A DNA stretch of 7,648 nucleotides from a virus. Taxonomy: Duplodnaviria; Heunggongvirae; Uroviricota; Caudoviricetes. A model generated the notes under the pieces. It did no database searches. It saw nothing but the letters and a program-made list of their open reading frames with translations, and was not told the DNA's origin. The stretch is taken from IMG/VR virus record IMGVR_UViG_2693429623_000007. The stretch is one strand, 5' to 3'. Numbering within the stretch: position 1 is the stretch's first letter; every line of letters starts with the position of its first letter. Shown here piece by piece: positions 1 to 6,823 of the stretch. The translations under genes and the position numbers were made by a program.

Positions 1-155
1 ACCTGGACAATATCCTGAAAGCACCACTGGATGCGCTGACGCATGCCGGACTACTCATAGACGACGAGCAGTTTGATGAAATCAATATTGTGCGCGGTCA
101 GCTCGTTCCTGGGGGGCGGCTGGGCGTGAAGATTTACAAAATTGAGAGTGAGTGA
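1..155 (+). CDS. rusA: Holliday junction resolvase RusA, 3' end (5' partial; starts upstream of window)
   Basis: Frame from nt 3 translates to LDNILKAPLDALTHAGLLIDDEQFDEINIVRGQLVPGGRLGVKIYKIESE*, stop TGA 153-155. Matches the C-terminal region of E. coli RusA as I recall it (DLDNL..DAL..AG...DD...GGRL); recall-based, not searched. Confidence 0.8.
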   Translation, partial: LDNILKAPLDALTHAGLLIDDEQFDEINIVRGQLVPGGRLGVKIYKIESE

Positions 156-706
156 TCGTAAATATGATATATCCGGAAATTACAGGCAAAAGCGGCGAGC
201 ATTTACGTCTAAAAACGCTGGAAGCCGTCTGGATCCAGGGGAAATTACGGATGTGGGGGCGTTGGTCGTATATAGGTGGTGGCAAACCAGGAAATATGTT
301 CAATCAGTTGCTGGCATCCAAAAAACTGACAAAAACCGCGGTCAATGAAGCCCTGCGTAGAATCAGGGAGTCAGGGATTGATAAACCAGAGCTGGAAGCA
401 TTCTTGCGAGAGATGATCGCTGGCAGACAGAAGAGCTGGTTGTCTCACTGTACTGATGCAGAGGCGTTACGCATTGATGGGGTGATAAGTAAAGCGCTTG
501 CACGTTATCCTGGATTGATTGATATCCTGCGGCAAAGGTACGAAGGGCGGGGGATGAGTAAACGCAAAATGGCTGAATTGTTGAATGAGGTGCACCCGGA
601 ATGGTGTTTTAGTACATGCGAAAAGCGAATTGCTAATTGGTTGGCTGTTGCTGAATATGCGCTATACATCCCTATGCGAGAATCGTTTGCTCAAAAAATG
701 TCTTGA
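152..706 (+). CDS. Putative late-gene antiterminator Q (non-lambda Q family), assigned mainly by synteny
   Basis: 184-aa ORF directly after rusA (GTG 152 overlaps the rusA stop as GTGA; alternative ATG at 164), followed by a promoter-like element and an intrinsic terminator. Contains a W-G-x-W stretch (LRMWGRWS) reminiscent of DLP12-type Q proteins. Family call is uncertain. Confidence 0.55.
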   Translation: MIVNMIYPEITGKSGEHLRLKTLEAVWIQGKLRMWGRWSYIGGGKPGNMFNQLLASKKLTKTAVNEALRRIRESGIDKPELEAFLREMIAGRQKSWLSHCTDAEALRIDGVISKALARYPGLIDILRQRYEGRGMSKRKMAELLNEVHPEWCFSTCEKRIANWLAVAEYALYIPMRESFAQKMS

Positions 707-731
707 TTTTTTACGCATAAACTGTTTCAAT
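703..731 (+). promoter_or_regulatory. Candidate late promoter (pR'-like) downstream of the Q-like gene
   Basis: TTGATT (703-708), 17-nt spacer, TTCAAT (726-731) preceded by TG at 723-724 (extended -10 like). Lies about 60 nt upstream of an intrinsic terminator, the arrangement expected for pR'/tR'. Confidence 0.4.
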
Positions 732-790
732 CCAGCTACGCTTCGCAAAGCTATACCGCGAGGCGAATAGCAGACATGGACACCTGAAAG

Positions 791-814
791 AACCCGCTTT
801 ATGCGGGTTTTTTT
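791..814 (+). terminator. Rho-independent terminator (tR'-like)
   Basis: Stem cccgc (793-797), loop tttat, stem gcggg (803-807), then seven T's (808-814). Confidence 0.7.
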
Positions 815-937
815 GTGCCCGAAAAGCGGTACAGGACGTTAAATGCGCTGGTGGTTGCGAATGCCGGTCTTTCAGCTTGCTGGCTTTTTCGACAAGAGGT
901 ATTGGTATGTCACGTTAACCGGAAAAGGGAAAAAGGC

Positions 938-1135
938 ATGCTAAAACAGCAGGATATGACCGAAACCGCCAGAGTGGTGTTTAATGAATTAAGCGTCACC
1001 GAACCGGCGACCGTCGGGGAAATTGCGCAGAATACTTACCTTTCACGCGAACGCTGCCAGTTAATCCTGACCCAGCTTGTTATGGCGGGTCTGGCAGATT
1101 ATCAGTTCGGTTGTTACAGACGCCTTCCGCAGTGA
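938..1135 (+). CDS. Small hypothetical protein (65 aa), possible helix-turn-helix DNA-binding protein; allele 1
   Basis: ATG 938 preceded by purine-rich aaaagggaaaaagg. The longer track ORF from 815 would start inside the terminator region, so the internal ATG is preferred. Product MLKQQDMTETARVVFNELSVTEPATVGEIAQNTYLSRERCQLILTQLVMAGLADYQFGCYRRLPQ; the stretch ATVGEIAQNTYLSRERCQLILTQL looks like an HTH. A near-identical allele is at 1826-2023. Confidence 0.6.
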   Translation: MLKQQDMTETARVVFNELSVTEPATVGEIAQNTYLSRERCQLILTQLVMAGLADYQFGCYRRLPQ

Positions 1136-1144
1136 AGGCTTTTT
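1122..1144 (+). terminator. Rho-independent terminator overlapping the stop codon of the 65-aa gene
   Basis: Stem gccttc (1122-1127), loop cgcagt, stem gaaggc (1134-1139), then five T's (1140-1144). The same structure recurs at about 2009-2033 and 2201-2223. Confidence 0.5.
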
Positions 1145-1184
1145 AATTTGTGGTAATGGGCGGCTGGTGGGTGTTAGCGGCNTC

Positions 1185-1601
1185 CAGTATCCGGATGGTA
1201 AGCCGCCGGTATGGGCAAAGTGTACGAAAGGTGTGTATCCGTCTTACTGGGAAGAATGGAAAAAAGTCAGGGAGGTGGTAAAAGTTGCCTGTCCGGAGTG
1301 TGGCGGAAAGGGTGAGGTTTCCACCGCCTGTAAGGATTGCCGTGGGCGTGGTGTCGCCATTCATCGTGAAGAGTCGGTAAAACGTGGTATGCCTGTTATC
1401 AGAGACTGCCAGCGTTGTGGTGGTCGTGGCTATGAAAGACTACCATCAACGGAGGCATTTAATGCTATATGCGAGGTGACAAACCAGATAACACGCGCGT
1501 CATGGGAAAAAACAGTTAAGAAATTTTATGATGCGCTGGTGACCCGGTTTGATATTGAAGAAGCATGGGCTGAGCGGCAGTTAAAAAAGGTAACTAGGTA
1601 A
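1185..1601 (+). CDS. Lambda-type antiterminator Q, C-terminal fragment (5' truncated at the junction n at 1182)
   Basis: Translation contains CPECGGKGEVSTACKDCRGRGVA...CQRCGGRGYERLPS...YDALV...KVTR*, matching the zinc-binding C-terminal region of lambda Q as recalled (CRDCHGTGRA...CGRCKGVGYSRMP...YDALV...AVTR). The first 35 codons of track ORF 1077-1601 lie in a repeat that is intergenic in the other copies, so the true N-terminus is missing. Confidence 0.75.
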   Translation, partial: QYPDGKPPVWAKCTKGVYPSYWEEWKKVREVVKVACPECGGKGEVSTACKDCRGRGVAIHREESVKRGMPVIRDCQRCGGRGYERLPSTEAFNAICEVTNQITRASWEKTVKKFYDALVTRFDIEEAWAERQLKKVTR

Positions 1602-1606
1602 CAAGG

Positions 1607-1634
1607 TTGATTTTTCCGGAATCTGTGGTAAATT
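1607..1634 (+). promoter_or_regulatory. Lambda-like late promoter pR'
   Basis: TTGATT (1607-1612), 16-nt spacer, TAAATT (1629-1634). The downstream text ggtaaattcgtcataacgatggg closely resembles the lambda pR' initial transcribed region (GGTAAATTTGACTCAACGATGGG, from memory). Confidence 0.65.
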
Positions 1635-1681
1635 CGTCATAACGATGGGCGTTTTATGCCTGACGTTAGAAGAGTTTCTAC

Positions 1682-1706
1682 AACCCGCCGCCGAGCGGGT
1701 TTTTTA
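1682..1706 (+). terminator. Rho-independent terminator tR' (lambda-like)
   Basis: Stem cccgc (1684-1688), loop cgccga, stem gcggg (1695-1699), then six T's (1700-1705); about 45 nt after the predicted pR' start. Confidence 0.7.
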
Positions 1707-2364: not shown

Positions 2365-3070
2365 ATGGCCAATACTGTAAAAATATCCAGTTGTGAGTTA
2401 ATCAACGCTGATTGCCTGGAATTTATCCAGACCTTACCGGAAAATTCTGTCGATCTGATAGTCACAGACCCGCCATACTTTAAAGTGAAGCCCGAGGGCT
2501 GGGATAACCAGTGGGAGGGCGACGATGATTACCTGAAATGGCTGGACCAGTGTCTGGCGCAGTTCTGGCGGGTGCTGAAACCTGCCGGAAGTCTTTACCT
2601 GTTCTGTGGTCATCGCCTGGCATCTGATATCGAAATCATGATGCGTGAACGCTTCAGTGTGCTGAACCATATTATCTGGGCGAAGCCGTCCGGACGCTGG
2701 AACGGATGCAACAAGGAAAGCCTGCGGGCGTATTTCCCCGCCACAGAGCGCATTCTGTTCGCGGAACATTATCAGGGGCCGTATCGTCCGAAAGATGCCG
2801 GGTATGCGGCGAAGGGCAGTGCACTGAAACAGCATGTGATGGCCCCGCTGATTTCTTACTTTCGTGATGCGCGAGCTGCCCTGGGGATAACGGCAAAACA
2901 GATTGCAGATGCCACAGGAAAGAAAAACATGGTGTCGCACTGGTTCAGTGCCGGTCAGTGGCAGTTGCCGAATGAAAGCGATTATCTGAAATTACAGGCG
3001 CTGTTTGCCCGGGTGGCAGAAGAGAAGCATCGGCGTGGTGAACTGGAAAAGCTCCACCACCAGCTGGTGG
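2365..3070 (+). CDS. DNA N6-adenine methyltransferase, beta class, N-terminal 235 codons (3' end interrupted by N gap)
   Basis: MANTVKISSCELINADCLEFIQTLPENSVDLIVTDPPYF...; catalytic motif IV DPPY at 2467-2478. Track ORF 2365-3102 runs through the gap. The gene continues in the segment 3694-4037. Confidence 0.8.
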
Positions 3071-3081
3071 NNNNNNNNNNN
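3071..3081. other. Assembly gap (11 N)
   Basis: Run of n inside the methyltransferase reading frame. Confidence 1.
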
Positions 3082-3150
3082 TGGCACAGGGGCGCGAGCT
3101 AAAACAGCACGTCATGGCCCCGCTGATTTCTTACTTTCGTGATGCGCGTA
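3082..3150 (+). pseudogene. Isolated 69-bp internal fragment of a divergent methyltransferase allele, between two N runs
   Basis: Matches 2811-2878 with several substitutions in the first 30 bp; the segment ...catggccccgctgatttcttactttcgtgatgcgcg is shared. Confidence 0.6.
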
Positions 3151-3179
3151 NNNNNNNNNNNNNNNNNNNNNNNNNNNNN
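3151..3179. other. Assembly gap (29 N)
   Basis: Run of n. Confidence 1.
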
Positions 3180-4037
3180 GCGCAGTTCTGGCGGGTGCTG
3201 AAACCTGCCGGAAGTCTTTACCTGTTCTGTGGTCATCGCCTGGCATCTGATATCGAAATCATGATGCGTGAACGCTTCAGTGTGCTGAACCATATTATCT
3301 GGGCGAAGCCGTCCGGACGCTGGAACGGATGCAACAAGGAAAGCCTGCGGGCGTATTTCCCCGCCACAGAGCGCATTCTGTTCGCGGAACATTATCAGGG
3401 GCCGTATCGTCCGAAAGATGCCGGGTATGCGGCGAAGGGCAGTGCACTGAAACAGCATGTGATGGCCCCGCTGATTTCTTACTTTCGTGATGCGCGAGCT
3501 GCCCTGGGGATAACGGCAAAACAGATTGCAGATGCCACAGGAAAGAAAAACATGGTGTCGCACTGGTTCAGTGCCGGTCAGTGGCAGTTGCCGAATGAAA
3601 GCGATTATCTGAAATTACAGGCGCTGTTTGCCCGGGTGGCAGAAGAGAAGCATCGGCGTGGTGAACTGGAAAAGCTCCACCACCAGCTGGTGGATACGTA
3701 TACCTCACTGAACCGGCAGTATGCGGAGCTGCTGAGTGAATATAAACATCTGCGGCGGTATTTTGGCGTGACGGTGCAGGTGCCGTATACCGATGTGTGG
3801 ACGCATAAACCGGTGCAGTTCTATCCCGGGAAACATCCGTGCGAAAAACCGGCAGAAATGCTGCAGCAGATAATCAACGCGAGCAGTCGTCCGGGAGACC
3901 TGGTTGCAGATTTTTTTATGGGTTCAGGTTCAACGGTAAAAGCGGCGATGGCACTGGGGCGTTGTGCGATTGGTGTTGAGCTGGAGACCGGACGTTTTGA
4001 ACAGACAGTCAGGGAAGTTCAGGATTTAATCGTTTGA
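3180..4037 (+). CDS. DNA N6-adenine methyltransferase, beta class, codon approx. 65 to stop (5' truncated by N gap)
   Basis: 3180-3693 appears identical to 2557-3070 (514 bp). The C-terminal part carries the AdoMet-binding motif I, FFMGSGST. Motif IV before motif I is the beta-class order. Stop TGA 4035-4037. Reconstructed full gene is about 349 aa. Confidence 0.8.
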   Translation, partial: AQFWRVLKPAGSLYLFCGHRLASDIEIMMRERFSVLNHIIWAKPSGRWNGCNKESLRAYFPATERILFAEHYQGPYRPKDAGYAAKGSALKQHVMAPLISYFRDARAALGITAKQIADATGKKNMVSHWFSAGQWQLPNESDYLKLQALFARVAEEKHRRGELEKLHHQLVDTYTSLNRQYAELLSEYKHLRRYFGVTVQVPYTDVWTHKPVQFYPGKHPCEKPAEMLQQIINASSRPGDLVADFFMGSGSTVKAAMALGRCAIGVELETGRFEQTVREVQDLIV

Positions 4038-4098
4038 AACGGATGAGATTGCAGAATTAATTACGCACCATTATTATTCTGCTCCCGGCCCTTTAGCN

Positions 4099-4395
4099 CT
4101 GCGGCGGTATTTTGGCGTGACGGTGCAGGTGCCGTATACCGATGTGTGGACGCATAAACCGGTGCAGTTCTATCCCGGGAAACATCCGTGCGAAAAACCG
4201 GCAGAAATGCTGCAGCAGATAATCAGCGCTAGCAGTCGTCCGGGTGACCTGATTGCAGATTTTTTCATGGGGTTGGGTTCGACAGTGAAAGCGGCACTGG
4301 CGCTCGGGCGTCGTGCAATTGGCGTTGAGCTGGAGACTGAACGTTTTGAGCAGACGGTTCGGGAAGTACAGGATTTAGTCAGCCAGAACGGATGA
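4099..4395 (+). CDS. Methyltransferase C-terminal fragment, second allele (5' truncated at the junction n at 4098)
   Basis: In-frame from 4099. Product ...VTVQVPYTDVWTHKPVQFYPGKHPCEKPAEMLQQIISASSRPGDLIADFFMGLGSTVKAALALGRRAIGVELETERFEQTVREVQDLVSQNG* differs from the 3751-4037 allele by scattered substitutions and a 5-aa longer tail. Confidence 0.7.
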   Translation: MRRYFGVTVQVPYTDVWTHKPVQFYPGKHPCEKPAEMLQQIISASSRPGDLIADFFMGLGSTVKAALALGRRAIGVELETERFEQTVREVQDLVSQNG

Positions 4396-4435
4396 TATTG
4401 AAGAATTAATTACGCGTCGTTATTATGCGGCTCCC

Positions 4436-4511
4436 GGCCCTTTAGCTCAGTGGTGAGAGCGAGCGACTCATAATCGCCAGGTCGCTGGTTCAAATCCAGC
4501 AAGGGCCACCA
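4436..4511 (+). tRNA. tRNA-Ile2/Met, anticodon CAU (ileX/ileZ-like)
   Basis: Hand-folded cloverleaf: acceptor GGCCCTT/AAGGGCC, D arm GCTC-AGTGGTGA-GAGC, anticodon loop CTCATAA, T arm GCTGG-TTCAAAT-CCAGC, discriminator A, encoded CCA. Resembles E. coli ileX as recalled. Confidence 0.85.
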
Positions 4512-4518
4512 TCACATA

Positions 4519-4595
4519 CCGCCATTAACTCATCAGGATAGAGCGCCAGCCTTCGAAGCTGGTTGCGCGGGGTTCGAGTCCTCGATGGCGGTCCA
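4519..4595 (+). tRNA. tRNA-Arg, anticodon UCG
   Basis: Acceptor CCGCCAT/ATGGCGG (7 bp), anticodon stem CCAGC/GCTGG with loop CTTCGAA, T loop TTCGAGT, encoded CCA. The D stem has one A-C mismatch. Confidence 0.75.
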
Positions 4596-4608
4596 TTATC
4601 TGCATCAT

Positions 4609-4685
4609 GCGTTGTTAGCTCAGCCGGACAGAGCAATTGCCTTCTAAGCAATCGGTCACTGGTTCGAATCCAGTACAACGCGCCA
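4609..4685 (+). tRNA. tRNA-Arg, anticodon UCU
   Basis: Acceptor GCGTTGT/ACAACGC, D arm GCTC-AGCCGGACA-GAGC, anticodon stem ATTGC/GCAAT with loop CTTCTAA, T arm ACTGG-TTCGAAT-CCAGT, encoded CCA. Confidence 0.85.
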
Positions 4686-4698
4686 CGCTTATTTTTCC

Positions 4699-4723
4699 AG
4701 GCTCGCTTCGGCGGGCCTTTTTC
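4699..4723 (+). terminator. Rho-independent terminator after the tRNA cluster
   Basis: Stem aggctcgc (4699-4706), loop ttcg, stem gcgggcct (4711-4718, one G-U pair), then T-run to 4722. Confidence 0.55.
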
Positions 4724-4860
4724 ATATCCGCGCCACGCCCGGCGCACATCAAAAAACCACAGAGCCTTTCAGGGGTGAGCTTACGGGATGGTCAGTGTGA
4801 CTTTCTCTGTGGGCTGGTCACCCCCGGGCGCAGGCTCACCCACTAAAAGGAAAAGTCACG

Positions 4861-5286
4861 ATGTTTGGTATTTTCAAAAAGAAAACCCGCAAGGCCATTA
4901 CCGAGGTGAAGAAGATGGAGAACCGTGACGCAGTGGAGGCGACCGTCTGGGGCGCGTACTCCATTGCATACGCTGACGGCACCTGTGACGCGAAAGAAAT
5001 CGCGGTACTGGAAAAAACCATTGCAGCACTTCCTGTCTTTGCGCCGTTCTCCGGTGAGATTGCACAAATGAGTGCAAATATCCGCGCCCGTTATGAAGCG
5101 TCGCCGCGTTCTGCCAATGCCGAAGCTCTTCGTCAGCTGGCTGATGTTGCCGGTACTGATGATGCAGTTAATGTGCTGTGCCTGTGTCTGGATATCGCTG
5201 ACCAGGACGGTATCGCTCAGGAAGAAGAAGCGCAACTGAAGAAAATTGCGCAGGCGCTGCAGTTGCCGCTGGAGCAGTACCTGTGA
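4861..5286 (+). CDS. TerB-like (tellurite-resistance TerB family) domain protein, 141 aa
   Basis: ATG 4861 with aaaaggaaaag upstream. Two internal half-repeats of the form A-x-A-DG...E...L..IA.AL (AYADGTCDAKEIAVLEKTIAAL and DIADQDGIAQEEEAQLKKIAQAL), the arrangement I recall for TerB. Family call is from memory. Confidence 0.55.
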   Translation: MFGIFKKKTRKAITEVKKMENRDAVEATVWGAYSIAYADGTCDAKEIAVLEKTIAALPVFAPFSGEIAQMSANIRARYEASPRSANAEALRQLADVAGTDDAVNVLCLCLDIADQDGIAQEEEAQLKKIAQALQLPLEQYL

Positions 5287-5435
5287 AAAGTGCGCGCCTT
5301 GTGCTGGCTGTCATCCTGTTGTTTCTGGTAGTGGTGGTTGATTTCACCGGACGACTGATGTCGGTGCTGGCAGATGGTGTGCTGGTGGCGATGGCGCTGG
5401 TCGTGCTCCGGCCTTTACTGCGTAAATCTGAATAA
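5283..5435 (+). CDS. Small hydrophobic protein (50 aa), putative membrane peptide
   Basis: GTG 5283 overlaps the upstream stop as GTGA; ggag lies 10 nt upstream. Product VKSARLVLAVILLFLVVVVDFTGRLMSVLADGVLVAMALVVLRPLLRKSE*. Below the 60-aa cutoff of the ORF track. Speculative. Confidence 0.35.
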   Translation: MKSARLVLAVILLFLVVVVDFTGRLMSVLADGVLVAMALVVLRPLLRKSE

Positions 5436-6599: not shown

Positions 6600-6823
6600 N
6601 NNNNNNNNNNNNNNNNNNNNNNNNNNNNNNNNNNNNNNNNNNNNNNNNNNNNNNNNNNNNNNNNNNNNNNNNNNNNNNNNNNNNNNNNNNNNNNNNNNNN
6701 NNNNNNNNNNNNNNNNNNNNNNNNNNNNNNNNNNNNNNNNNNNNNNNNNNNNNNNNNNNNNNNNNNNNNNNNNNNNNNNNNNNNNNNNNNNNNNNNNNNN
6801 NNNNNNNNNNNNNNNNNNNNNNN
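6600..6823. other. Assembly gap (224 N)
   Basis: Run of n between the endolysin terminator and the lipoprotein gene. Confidence 1.

Follow-up and report, generated by a model that had tools for sequence, protein, structure and literature searches.

The 7,648-nt stretch of viral DNA analyzed here (the window, from IMG/VR record IMGVR_UViG_2693429623_000007) holds two alternative late-gene switch cassettes that very probably come from different lambdoid prophages within a single E. coli genome, were scaffolded end to end, and work as Q switches. In each cassette, a Q gene is followed by a predicted constitutive late promoter, a −10-like hexamer just past the start site, and an intrinsic terminator 60 to 80 nt downstream. 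The promoter −35 element overlaps the Q stop codon in cassette 1 and lies within a few bases of it in cassette 2. An earlier reading made from the letters alone (the sequence-only reading) had described these elements, and each was confirmed, to within a few bases, at the position it gave. The features are as follows, all on the + strand except the junction, which has no strand.

3 to 155, +: 3' end of rusA, its last 50 codons, with stop TGA at 153 to 155 (PF05866 RusA, NCBIfam PRK09786, RefSeq annotation in prophage L001).
164 to 706, +: cassette 1 Q gene, encoding a DUF1133 protein of 180 aa (PF06576, PF06530, PDB profile, hhalign, Foldseek).
703 to 731, +: cassette 1 late promoter (pR'-like), with −35 TTGATT at 703 to 708, a 17-nt spacer at 709 to 725, and −10 TTCAAT at 726 to 731 (read from the sequence).
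737 to 742, +: −10-like hexamer TACGCT, a predicted sigma-dependent pause element 5 nt past the −10 (position of phage 21 TAAGCT(G)).
791 to 814, +: cassette 1 intrinsic terminator (tR'), AACCCGC-TTTAT-GCGGGTT plus U-tract (fold, terminator detection).
938 to 1135, +: 65-aa gene, allele 1, the first gene past tR' (WP_000917767.1 in RefSeq; PHROG 331, E = 1.4e-37).
1122 to 1145, +: terminator-like hairpin that overlaps the 65-aa gene at its end, repeated at 2010 to 2033 and 2201 to 2224 (terminator scan).
1182, no strand: single N, a contig junction and the sole link between module 1 and module 2.
1185 to 1601, +: cassette 2 Q gene, present as the last 138 aa of a 273-aa lambda-family Q (PF03589, PDB lambda Q, alignment).
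1607 to 1649, +: cassette 2 pR', with −35 TTGATT at 1607 to 1612, a 16-nt spacer, −10 TAAATT at 1629 to 1634, 6 nt, and pause element AACGAT at 1641 to 1646 followed by GGG, to 1649 (comparison with lambda).
1682 to 1706, +: cassette 2 intrinsic terminator (tR') (terminator scan, fold).
1826 to 2023, +: 65-aa gene, allele 2 (comparison with allele 1).
2180 to 2364, +: true continuation of module 1, which repeats 1101 to 1181 and then enters a methyltransferase gene.

The side-by-side position of the two Q modules is an artefact of draft-assembly scaffolding, because the 81 nt directly before the N at 1182 (1101 to 1181) are repeated exactly at 2180 to 2260. Taken as given, the window has the modules contiguous, as they would be if a single prophage carried them in tandem with a duplicated late-control region, but we regard that arrangement as extremely improbable. 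Besides the exact repeat and the dependence of the link on one N, the sequence from 2180 to 2260 onward continues as it does in complete genomes, and the window, which has six N runs in total, contains duplicated, N-separated methyltransferase pieces in its remaining part. A junction query (1040 to 1330) was confounded, since the search joined its two halves despite their reversed real order, and one match was inspected to resolve this; in complete E. coli genomes the halves occur only in the opposite order, Q and then the 65-aa gene. The sequence-only reading would have been contradicted by physical adjacency of the modules in one prophage, which was seen in 0 of the complete genomes examined. 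The scaffolder would have placed the cassettes end to end because both precede near-identical late-region DNA. A caution follows for poly-lysogenic E. coli: in scaffolded drafts, alternative prophage alleles end up strung one after another in this way.

In complete genomes, each cassette stands alone between RusA and the 65-aa gene, and the slot reads the same with either one: DUF968, RusA, Q, the 65-aa gene, a DNA methyltransferase, tRNA Ile/Arg/Arg, and lysis genes. Module 1 (window 1 to 1181: rusA end, Q, cassette, 65-aa gene) was present at a coverage of at least 80% in 832 of 5,426 complete E. coli genomes. The 3' end of rusA forms the left conserved flank of cassette 1, and homology to the other prophage type stops at about 137. 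When prophages L001 and L002 were aligned, they were 91% identical until window position 137, 18 nt before the end of rusA, showed no similarity over Q, promoter, and terminator, and returned to ∼90% identity at the terminator (window 803) for 1.9 kb. An alignment within the window (A1) likewise had the two modules alignable again just past each terminator. The two alleles of the 65-aa gene, which the sequence-only reading had recognized as the same gene after both modules, differ at 4 of 198 bases, all of them synonymous, so that the protein is identical. Because the flanks are ∼91% identical while the cassettes are unrelated, the exchange is, from these alignments, a clean swap of Q-promoter-terminator cassettes between two E. 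coli lambdoid prophages. This is the mosaic boundary that had been proposed; it is ordinary lambdoid mosaicism, and the result confirms the textbook picture and reveals nothing new there.

The sequence-only reading had called the open reading frame at 152 to 706 a non-lambda Q-like gene and had left open that it might belong to a non-Q family. The reading frame exists, although GTG 152, which overlaps the RusA stop and would give 184 aa, is probably not the true start; ATG 164 (MIYP..., 180 aa) is the start in all homologs and in RefSeq. Searches against Q families placed this protein in the Q21 superfamily and the protein from 1185 to 1601 in the lambda family. The match to PF06576 covered nearly the whole model (E = 5.6e-103, residues 5 to 179 against model positions 1 to 175 of 176), and both Pfam and the RefSeq ortholog, named "DUF1133 family protein," carry the DUF1133 label. 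The protein also matched PF06530, the Q21/Q933W family of Q proteins (28.3 bits; cut-off, 26), and the "Q-like" PHROG 753 (E = 3e-77). A single-sequence search of the PDB with the DUF1133 protein returned nothing, and it was a profile built from eight homologs that matched Q21 (6p18_P, E = 5.3e-8). With hhalign (97%, E = 1.2e-10, 135 columns), residues 17 to 182 of 184 aligned with residues 5 to 152 of phage 21 Q, a region that takes in the N-terminal helix and the C-terminal helices. The N-terminal helix shared with Q21 (structures 6P18, 6P19, 6P1A, 6JNX) carries the motif W..G.L..WG.W; pairwise similarity to Q21 was 22% identity, and BLASTP recovered the N-terminal tryptophan motif alone. 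The fold match is weak evidence because the AlphaFold model is of low quality (mean pLDDT, 53): in a Foldseek search with this model the top nine matches were all Q21 chains (probability, 0.97 to 1.0; TM score, 0.39 to 0.54; E of ∼1e-2), and the next matches were noise. By profile comparison, then, the protein is a remote, nearly full-length homolog of phage 21 Q and a diverged member of the Q21 superfamily.

Two differences from Q21 stand out in the hhalign alignment. In Q21, the minor groove of the DNA is contacted by a 13-residue loop (RVARPRKMLCRGG...) within a helix-turn[loop]-helix (Yin et al., 10.1101/651190); this loop falls in a gap in the alignment, and DUF1133 shows a plain helix-turn-helix-like stretch (SKRKMAELLNEVHPEWCFSTCEKRI). 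Conversely, the first helix of DUF1133 is followed by an insertion of ∼28 residues, close to where Q21 forms its torus.

The DNA downstream of the cassette 1 Q gene bore out the promoter and terminator that the sequence-only reading had proposed at 703 to 814. The Q stop codon TGA falls within the −35 hexamer, and a generic promoter scanner missed the promoter because its −10 lacks the usual A at position 2. From this layout we infer a transcription start at about 735 to 738. The terminator stem pairs 791 to 797 with 803 to 809, the U-tract reaches 814, and the RNA from 735 to 825 folds at −39 kcal/mol (z = −6.15); termination there would yield a short transcript of ∼77 nt.

This anatomy fits the layout of phage 21 pR', whose curated record annotates a −35, QBEu (ATTGAGCA), QBEd (AATGAGCA), a −10, the start site, pause element TAAGCT(G), and a terminator. 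In both phage 21 and cassette 1, the Q gene has the nin/RusA region on one side and the late lysis genes on the other, the promoter begins at or overlaps the stop codon, the hexamer (TAAGCT in phage 21, TACGCT here) follows directly on the start site, and an intrinsic terminator is found a short way downstream. The two differ in that the annotated phage 21 terminator starts at the pause element, whereas that of cassette 1 is separate. In phage 21, moreover, a pair of 8-bp direct repeats separates the −35 from the −10; the cassette 1 spacer (TTTTACGCATAAACTGT), the expected place of a Q-binding element, has no clear direct repeat.

To see how widely this layout is kept, we compared 41 cassettes, those of the window and of 40 related loci across Enterobacterales, the range over which the DUF1133 family is spread. 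A −35, 16 to 17 nt, a −10, 5 nt, and a TAnGCT-like hexamer (TAnGCT itself or TATAAG, CATAAG, or TATCCT) were found in 33 of the 41, from Escherichia to Yersinia, Rouxiella, and Edaphovirga. The layout persisted despite otherwise diverged sequences, and it did so in a 192-aa subgroup in which the −35 lies inside the coding sequence. The spacer was conserved inside subgroups, and in two loci (L023 and L029) it begins with the exact phage 21 octamers ATTGAGCA/AATGAGCA at the phage 21 position. A terminator occurred +60 to +111 nt from the stop codon in 31 of 40 loci, with holin genes downstream in many. A consensus fold of 11 relatives supported the terminator helix alone; the 5' hairpin that the window alone predicts for the cassette 1 RNA found no support there and was set aside.

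Cassette 2 proved to be of the lambda family, as the sequence-only reading had it. Its Q fragment matched PF03589 (E = 9.5e-32; 109.4 bits; cut-off, 26.7) and lambda Q structures (7ubj/4mo1/7ubm, E of ∼1e-16), and its identity to the C-terminal half of the 273-aa "antitermination protein" of strain TOE17 is 99%. The gene is incomplete (138 of 273 residues) because the N at 1182 marks the end of a contig; complete genes of this type are present in L002 and in a second locus, L048. Aligned with lambda Q (4MO1, 7UBJ to 7UBN), the protein extends to the last residue (...VTR), and the four zinc-finger cysteines, two CxxC pairs, are invariant (C184, C187, C210, C213). The full-length relative is 38% identical to lambda Q but longer (273 versus 207 aa), and it contains an insertion of 66 residues with extra CxxC pairs; a DnaJ-like match to this cysteine-rich insertion fell just under the Pfam cut-off.

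The lambda-like pR'/tR' that had been proposed at 1607 to 1706 was equally recognizable. Lambda (taken from the L047 sequence) reads TTGACT-17-TAAATT-TGACTC-AACGATGGG, and cassette 2 reads TAAATT-CGTCAT-AACGATGGG, so that the −10, the 6-nt gap, and the element that follows it are common to both. Over the stretch from GGTAAATT to GGG, 19 of 23 bases are identical, as counted by eye. The promoter spacer (TTTCCGGAATCTGTGG) is unrelated to that of lambda, in which the spacer is bound by lambda Q. The cassette 2 terminator would give a transcript of ∼66 nt, compared with the longer 6S RNA of lambda.

Taken as switches, the two cassettes would act alike. In the absence of Q, polymerase would start at the late promoter, sigma-70 would re-engage TACGCT in cassette 1 or AACGAT in cassette 2, and RNA polymerase would pause and later terminate, releasing a short RNA. 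Q, supplied from the early-right transcript, would bind its cognate site in the spacer of the late promoter and load onto the paused polymerase, making it resistant to the terminator and allowing expression of the genes that follow (the 65-aa gene, the methyltransferase, and the tRNA and lysis genes). Since neither the Q proteins nor the promoter spacers of the two cassettes are related, each Q is predicted to be active on its own prophage only.

We consider it likely that DUF1133 is a functional Q antiterminator lineage within the Q21 superfamily. [quoted passage not shown] The protein might instead be another DNA-binding regulator at the nin/late boundary, such as an activator or a repressor that resembles sigma region 4 and acts on the adjacent promoter, with the promoter-terminator pair merely making a small RNA or attenuating expression. 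Q21 itself resembles sigma region 4 (bioRxiv 10.1101/651190), the DUF1133 alignment lacks the DNA-contacting loop and has its insertion in the torus-forming region, and the structure model is of low confidence. Moreover, no paper in the literature searched mentions DUF1133 or reports an antitermination test of any member. Three relatives (L007 to L009), whose DUF1133 gene is 78% identical to that of the window, also lie upstream of a different RNA module, with isrK and C4 RNA and without the TAnGCT hexamer. Against a nonantiterminator role stand the homology to Q21 along nearly the whole protein, helices at both ends included, the constant position of the gene in the Q slot, the full phage 21 grammar of promoter, pause hexamer, and terminator retained in the downstream DNA, and the holins downstream in many loci. 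On balance, we judge that alternative improbable.

The isrK-bearing relatives recall the AntQ/isrK locus of Salmonella Gifsy-1 (PMC4825925), in which AntQ is a Q-like protein whose overexpression is toxic and is rescued by Rho. In L007 and L009, where the isrK matches exceed the threshold (75.6 and 67.1 bits), the DUF1133 gene directly precedes isrK, which is the position given for AntQ in PMC4825925, and the published isrK primer matches L009; in the window, no isrK match exceeds the threshold. We considered AntQ as a tested member of DUF1133, given that the isrK synteny fits. On these data the two cannot be equated, because the antQ forward primer encodes a different N terminus (MNTQYLQ) that occurs in none of the examined loci. 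Gifsy-1 itself was absent among the phage-collection matches, and cluster look-ups gave no link between AntQ and DUF1133.

On this reading, a common prophage protein of E. coli and other Enterobacterales becomes annotatable as a late-gene antiterminator of the Q21 superfamily, with its promoter, pause hexamer, and terminator mapped alongside. Its membership in that superfamily is the one modest addition of this analysis. The comparison with Q21 also offers a natural variant for asking whether the Q21 mechanism depends on its DNA-contacting loop and on how long its torus segment is.

Both terminated transcripts (about 737 to 814 and 1641 to 1706) could, beyond being by-products of the switch, act in trans as small RNAs. 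StxS of Stx phages, a pR'-tR' product that binds Hfq (PMC7547250), provides a precedent, the predicted fold of the cassette 1 RNA, which has a hairpin and U-tract at its end, is unusually stable, and Rfam isrK matches were seen at both transcripts, although at 21.6 and 16.2 bits they were below the cut-off of 50. These and the other sub-threshold Rfam matches (Trp leader, MCS4) were driven by the terminator. Neither transcript reached the threshold of any Rfam family, and the only matches above threshold in the window were three tRNAs. The sequence from pause hexamer to terminator varies freely among loci, and the consensus fold did not extend beyond the terminator helix, so we view a trans-acting role as rather unlikely. 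The Pas small RNAs (PasA/C and PasD; Zhu et al. 2026, Pearl Mizrahi et al. 2021) were tried as an identity and rejected. In E2348/69, PasD2 follows a DUF3927 gene and PasA lies between esterase and holin genes, neither of them after Q, and none of the four published probes (0/4) matched the window with up to five substitutions allowed.

Beyond the switch, the 65-aa protein bears a weak winged-helix resemblance, with a TrmB match of 18 bits that is under the cut-off. The sequence-only reading had noted that Q type controls late and toxin gene expression in Stx phages. That is correct as background: exchange of the Q-promoter-terminator unit alters late and toxin expression (PMC3320398, PMC6266700). 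The Q regions of Stx and other lambdoid prophages, with Q933 or Q21 alleles upstream of stx, show a like exchange ahead of conserved late DNA that includes methyltransferase and tRNA genes. Stx prophages carry stx, whereas the region in the window has no stx gene; TerB and DUF3927 genes hold the position after the tRNAs. Among the nearest complete genomes are those of the ETEC strains H10407 and ETEC-2264 and of isolates from human stool in Mali.

The sequence-only reading held that two Q-promoter-terminator cassettes had been swapped in front of alleles of the same downstream gene, and every element that it listed was present in the window. The features of the two cassettes are:

152-706, cassette 1 open reading frame for a Q-like DUF1133 protein
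703-708, cassette 1 −35 TTGATT, with the Q stop codon inside
17 nt, cassette 1 spacer between TTGATT and TTCAAT
726-731, cassette 1 −10 TTCAAT
737-742, cassette 1 pause-like hexamer TACGCT, 5 nt past TTCAAT
791-814, cassette 1 terminator, strong
938-1135, 65-aa gene, first copy
1185-1601, cassette 2 C-terminal fragment of a lambda-type Q gene
1682-1706, cassette 2 terminator
1826-2023, 65-aa gene, second copy

In complete genomes, both cassettes occupy a common slot, in the order DUF968, RusA, Q, 65-aa gene, DNA methyltransferase, and tRNA Ile, Arg, Arg, and the 65-aa protein is identical in both prophage types (WP_000917767.1). We mapped the swap boundaries by BLASTN between one prophage of each type. 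The left flank (91% identity) ended at window position 137, 18 nt before the rusA stop; nothing could be aligned across Q, promoter, and terminator; and the right flank began at window position 803, within the terminator, continuing at ∼90% identity over 1.9 kb until the lysis regions diverged again. Because such similar flanks enclose a stretch with no alignable sequence, the exchanged unit is exactly Q, promoter, and terminator, bearing out the proposed swap before conserved late DNA. Within the window, the modules are 85% identical just past the terminators and 97% identical in the 65-aa gene, whose copies differ at four synonymous positions and are indeed alleles of one gene. Because of a 2-nt indel 5′ of its ATG, the longer reading seen in module 1 (106 aa) is frameshifted in module 2, which supports the 65-aa call; RefSeq calls it likewise. 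The two-cassette finding is correct and ordinary; what we add is small: DUF1133 can be assigned to the Q21 superfamily (Q21 being the Q of phage 21), with a recognizable phage-21-type promoter, pause hexamer, and terminator.

The window, 7,648 bases long, is a scaffolded draft across which the chromosome is not continuous. It contains six runs of N (1182, 2113-2179, 3071-3081, 3151-3179, 4098, and 6600-6823) and overlapping contig ends, with 1101-1181 repeated exactly at 2180-2260 and 2557-3069 at 3180-3692. The closest complete genomes to 1-1181 are from E. coli (99.2 to 99.8% identity), including ETEC strains H10407 and ETEC-2264 and Mali stool isolates. The sequence-only reading had suspected that the side-by-side placement of the modules was not genuine, and the evidence agrees: the adjacency is an assembly artifact, because the N at 1182 is the sole link joining module 1 to module 2, the 81 nt preceding it recur at 2180-2260 with a continuation that matches complete genomes, the junction halves occur in complete genomes only in the order Q, then 65-aa gene, and later parts of the window match either prophage type piece by piece (BLASTN, one prophage per type). 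An N6/N4 DNA methyltransferase gene is likewise present as three partial copies with runs of N between them (2365-3069, 3114-4037, and 4117-4395). The first two share the exact 2557-3069 repeat, 3750-4049 and 4099-4398 are 89% identical, and the copies appear to be prophage alleles, collapsed or alternative, placed end to end.

The cassette 2 fragment stays in frame up to its stop, and its product is a lambda-type Q C terminus of 138 residues, as had been proposed; it aligns with lambda Q through the last residue and keeps the four zinc cysteines. The complete 273-aa gene was found in strains TOE17 and 203740. In a full-length relative (locus L002, 6598-7419), 66 residues that lambda Q lacks are inserted; the insertion is rich in cysteine and has additional CxxC pairs. 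The fragment also scored 32.2 bits against the DnaJ central domain, just under the Pfam cutoff of 32.7. Lambda pR′ reads TTGACT-17-TAAATT-TGACTC-AACGATGGG, and the window has TTGATT-16-TAAATT-CGTCAT-AACGATGGG.

The cassette 1 gene follows the last 50 codons of rusA and starts at ATG 164 in homologues and RefSeq, giving 180 aa. Pfam assigns its product to DUF1133 (E value, 5.6e-103); PF06530 is also matched, marginally (28.3 bits; cutoff, 26). The Q21/Q933W family corresponds to PF06530, and that of lambda Q to PF03589 (Yin et al., bioRxiv 10.1101/651190). PHROGs labels the family "Q-like," and homologues carry a Q annotation in some phage records, Rac-SA53 among them; the RefSeq name is "DUF1133 family protein" only, and we found no mention of DUF1133 in the literature searched. 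The family is narrow (68 representatives at 50% identity among 1.84 billion proteins), and its named sources are all Enterobacterales. Two loci are assigned elsewhere, one to a "Candidatus Nanosynbacter" MAG (a 5-kb contig; protein 83% identical to the E. coli one) and one to a Vagococcus assembly; both are most likely contamination or misbinning of enterobacterial prophage DNA. A single-sequence search of the PDB found nothing, and an eight-homologue profile matched phage 21 Q chains 6p18_P and 6jnx_P (E value, 5e-8). Aligning 22 sequences against phage 21 Q with hhalign gave 97% probability and an E value of 1.2e-10 over 135 columns (residues 17-182 against Q21 residues 5-152). The AlphaFold model is poor (mean pLDDT, 53); its best nine Foldseek PDB matches were all Q21 chains and the rest noise. 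In the hhalign alignment, DUF1133 differs visibly from Q21 in two ways: ∼28 residues are inserted behind the first helix, and the helix-turn[loop]-helix of Q21 is missing its 13-residue loop. We conclude that the DUF1133 family forms a diverged branch of the Q21 superfamily, in keeping with the Q-like assignment made from the sequence.

Features annotated in the curated record of phage 21 are a −35 (TTGACA), two Q-binding octamers (ATTGAGCA and AATGAGCA), a −10, a start site, a pause element of TAAGCT(G), and a terminator. Of 42 related loci retrieved from single-species genomes, we examined 40, anchoring on the DUF1133 stop. A common layout of TTGnnn, 16 to 17 nt, a −10-like hexamer, exactly 5 nt, and TAnGCT (TATAAG, CATAAG, and TATCCT also accepted) was present in 33 of 41 cassettes, the window included, from Escherichia to Yersinia, Rouxiella, and Edaphovirga; a 192-aa subgroup also keeps it, with the −35 within the coding sequence. 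A terminator finder placed terminators 60 to 111 nt past the stop in 31 of the 40 loci, several missed loci had one by eye, and many of the loci have holin genes 0.2 to 1.9 kb downstream. Downstream of the DUF1133 gene, one spacer (L023) starts with ATTGAGCA, the exact upstream phage 21 octamer, and another (L029) with AATGAGCA, the exact downstream one. Given this layout, the terminators, the holins, and the octamers, the protein and its predicted target site resemble a phage-21-type unit whose parts are inherited together; pausing, binding, and antitermination are predicted. Just after the pause-like hexamer, a block at 743-765, TCGCAAAGCT(A/G)TA(C/T)CGCGAGGCG, is kept in several subgroups that have otherwise diverged (L004-L006, L015, L018, L024, and L036). 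It holds another −10-like hexamer (TATACC, 752-757); a consensus RNA hairpin for the block had no support.

Just past the 65-aa gene terminator, every copy carries a strong GC-rich inverted repeat, GGCTGGTGGGTG...CACCCACCAGCC (2051-2081; also 1163-1181 with 2242-2272), with a weak, subthreshold match to Pseudomonas P26. Three tRNA genes within 4436-5435 match the tRNA Ile, Arg, Arg annotated in related complete genomes. In Stx phages, stx occupies the position after them; 4436-5435 contains no toxin gene, and downstream of the tRNAs lie genes for a TerB-family protein (4861-5286) and for DUF3927 (5283-5435).

We rejected the terminated cassette transcripts as Pas small RNAs; they reached no Rfam threshold. 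In loci L007-L009, the DUF1133 gene is directly followed by isrK RNA and an antisense RNA of the C4 type, in place of the TAnGCT cassette. In L007 (3075-3276) and L009 (3088-3268), the DUF1133 gene is 78% identical to the window's, isrK scores 75.6 and 67.1 bits, and the promoter −35 overlaps the stop codon, as in the window; L007 also has a C4 a1/b1 target match, with isrK, C4, and target matches all above Rfam thresholds. This arrangement appears to be a further mosaic joint, here at the Q 3′ end. AntQ in Gifsy-1 occupies the matching position before isrK (PMC4825925). We do not equate it with DUF1133, because the published antQ primer encodes another N terminus and matches none of the loci examined. 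STnc100 matches above the Rfam threshold (L004, 3789-3975; L012, 3239-3430; L011, 4620-4749) follow DUF1133 cassettes at a distance of a few hundred bases, which fits the reported association of STnc100 and PasD with this prophage region.
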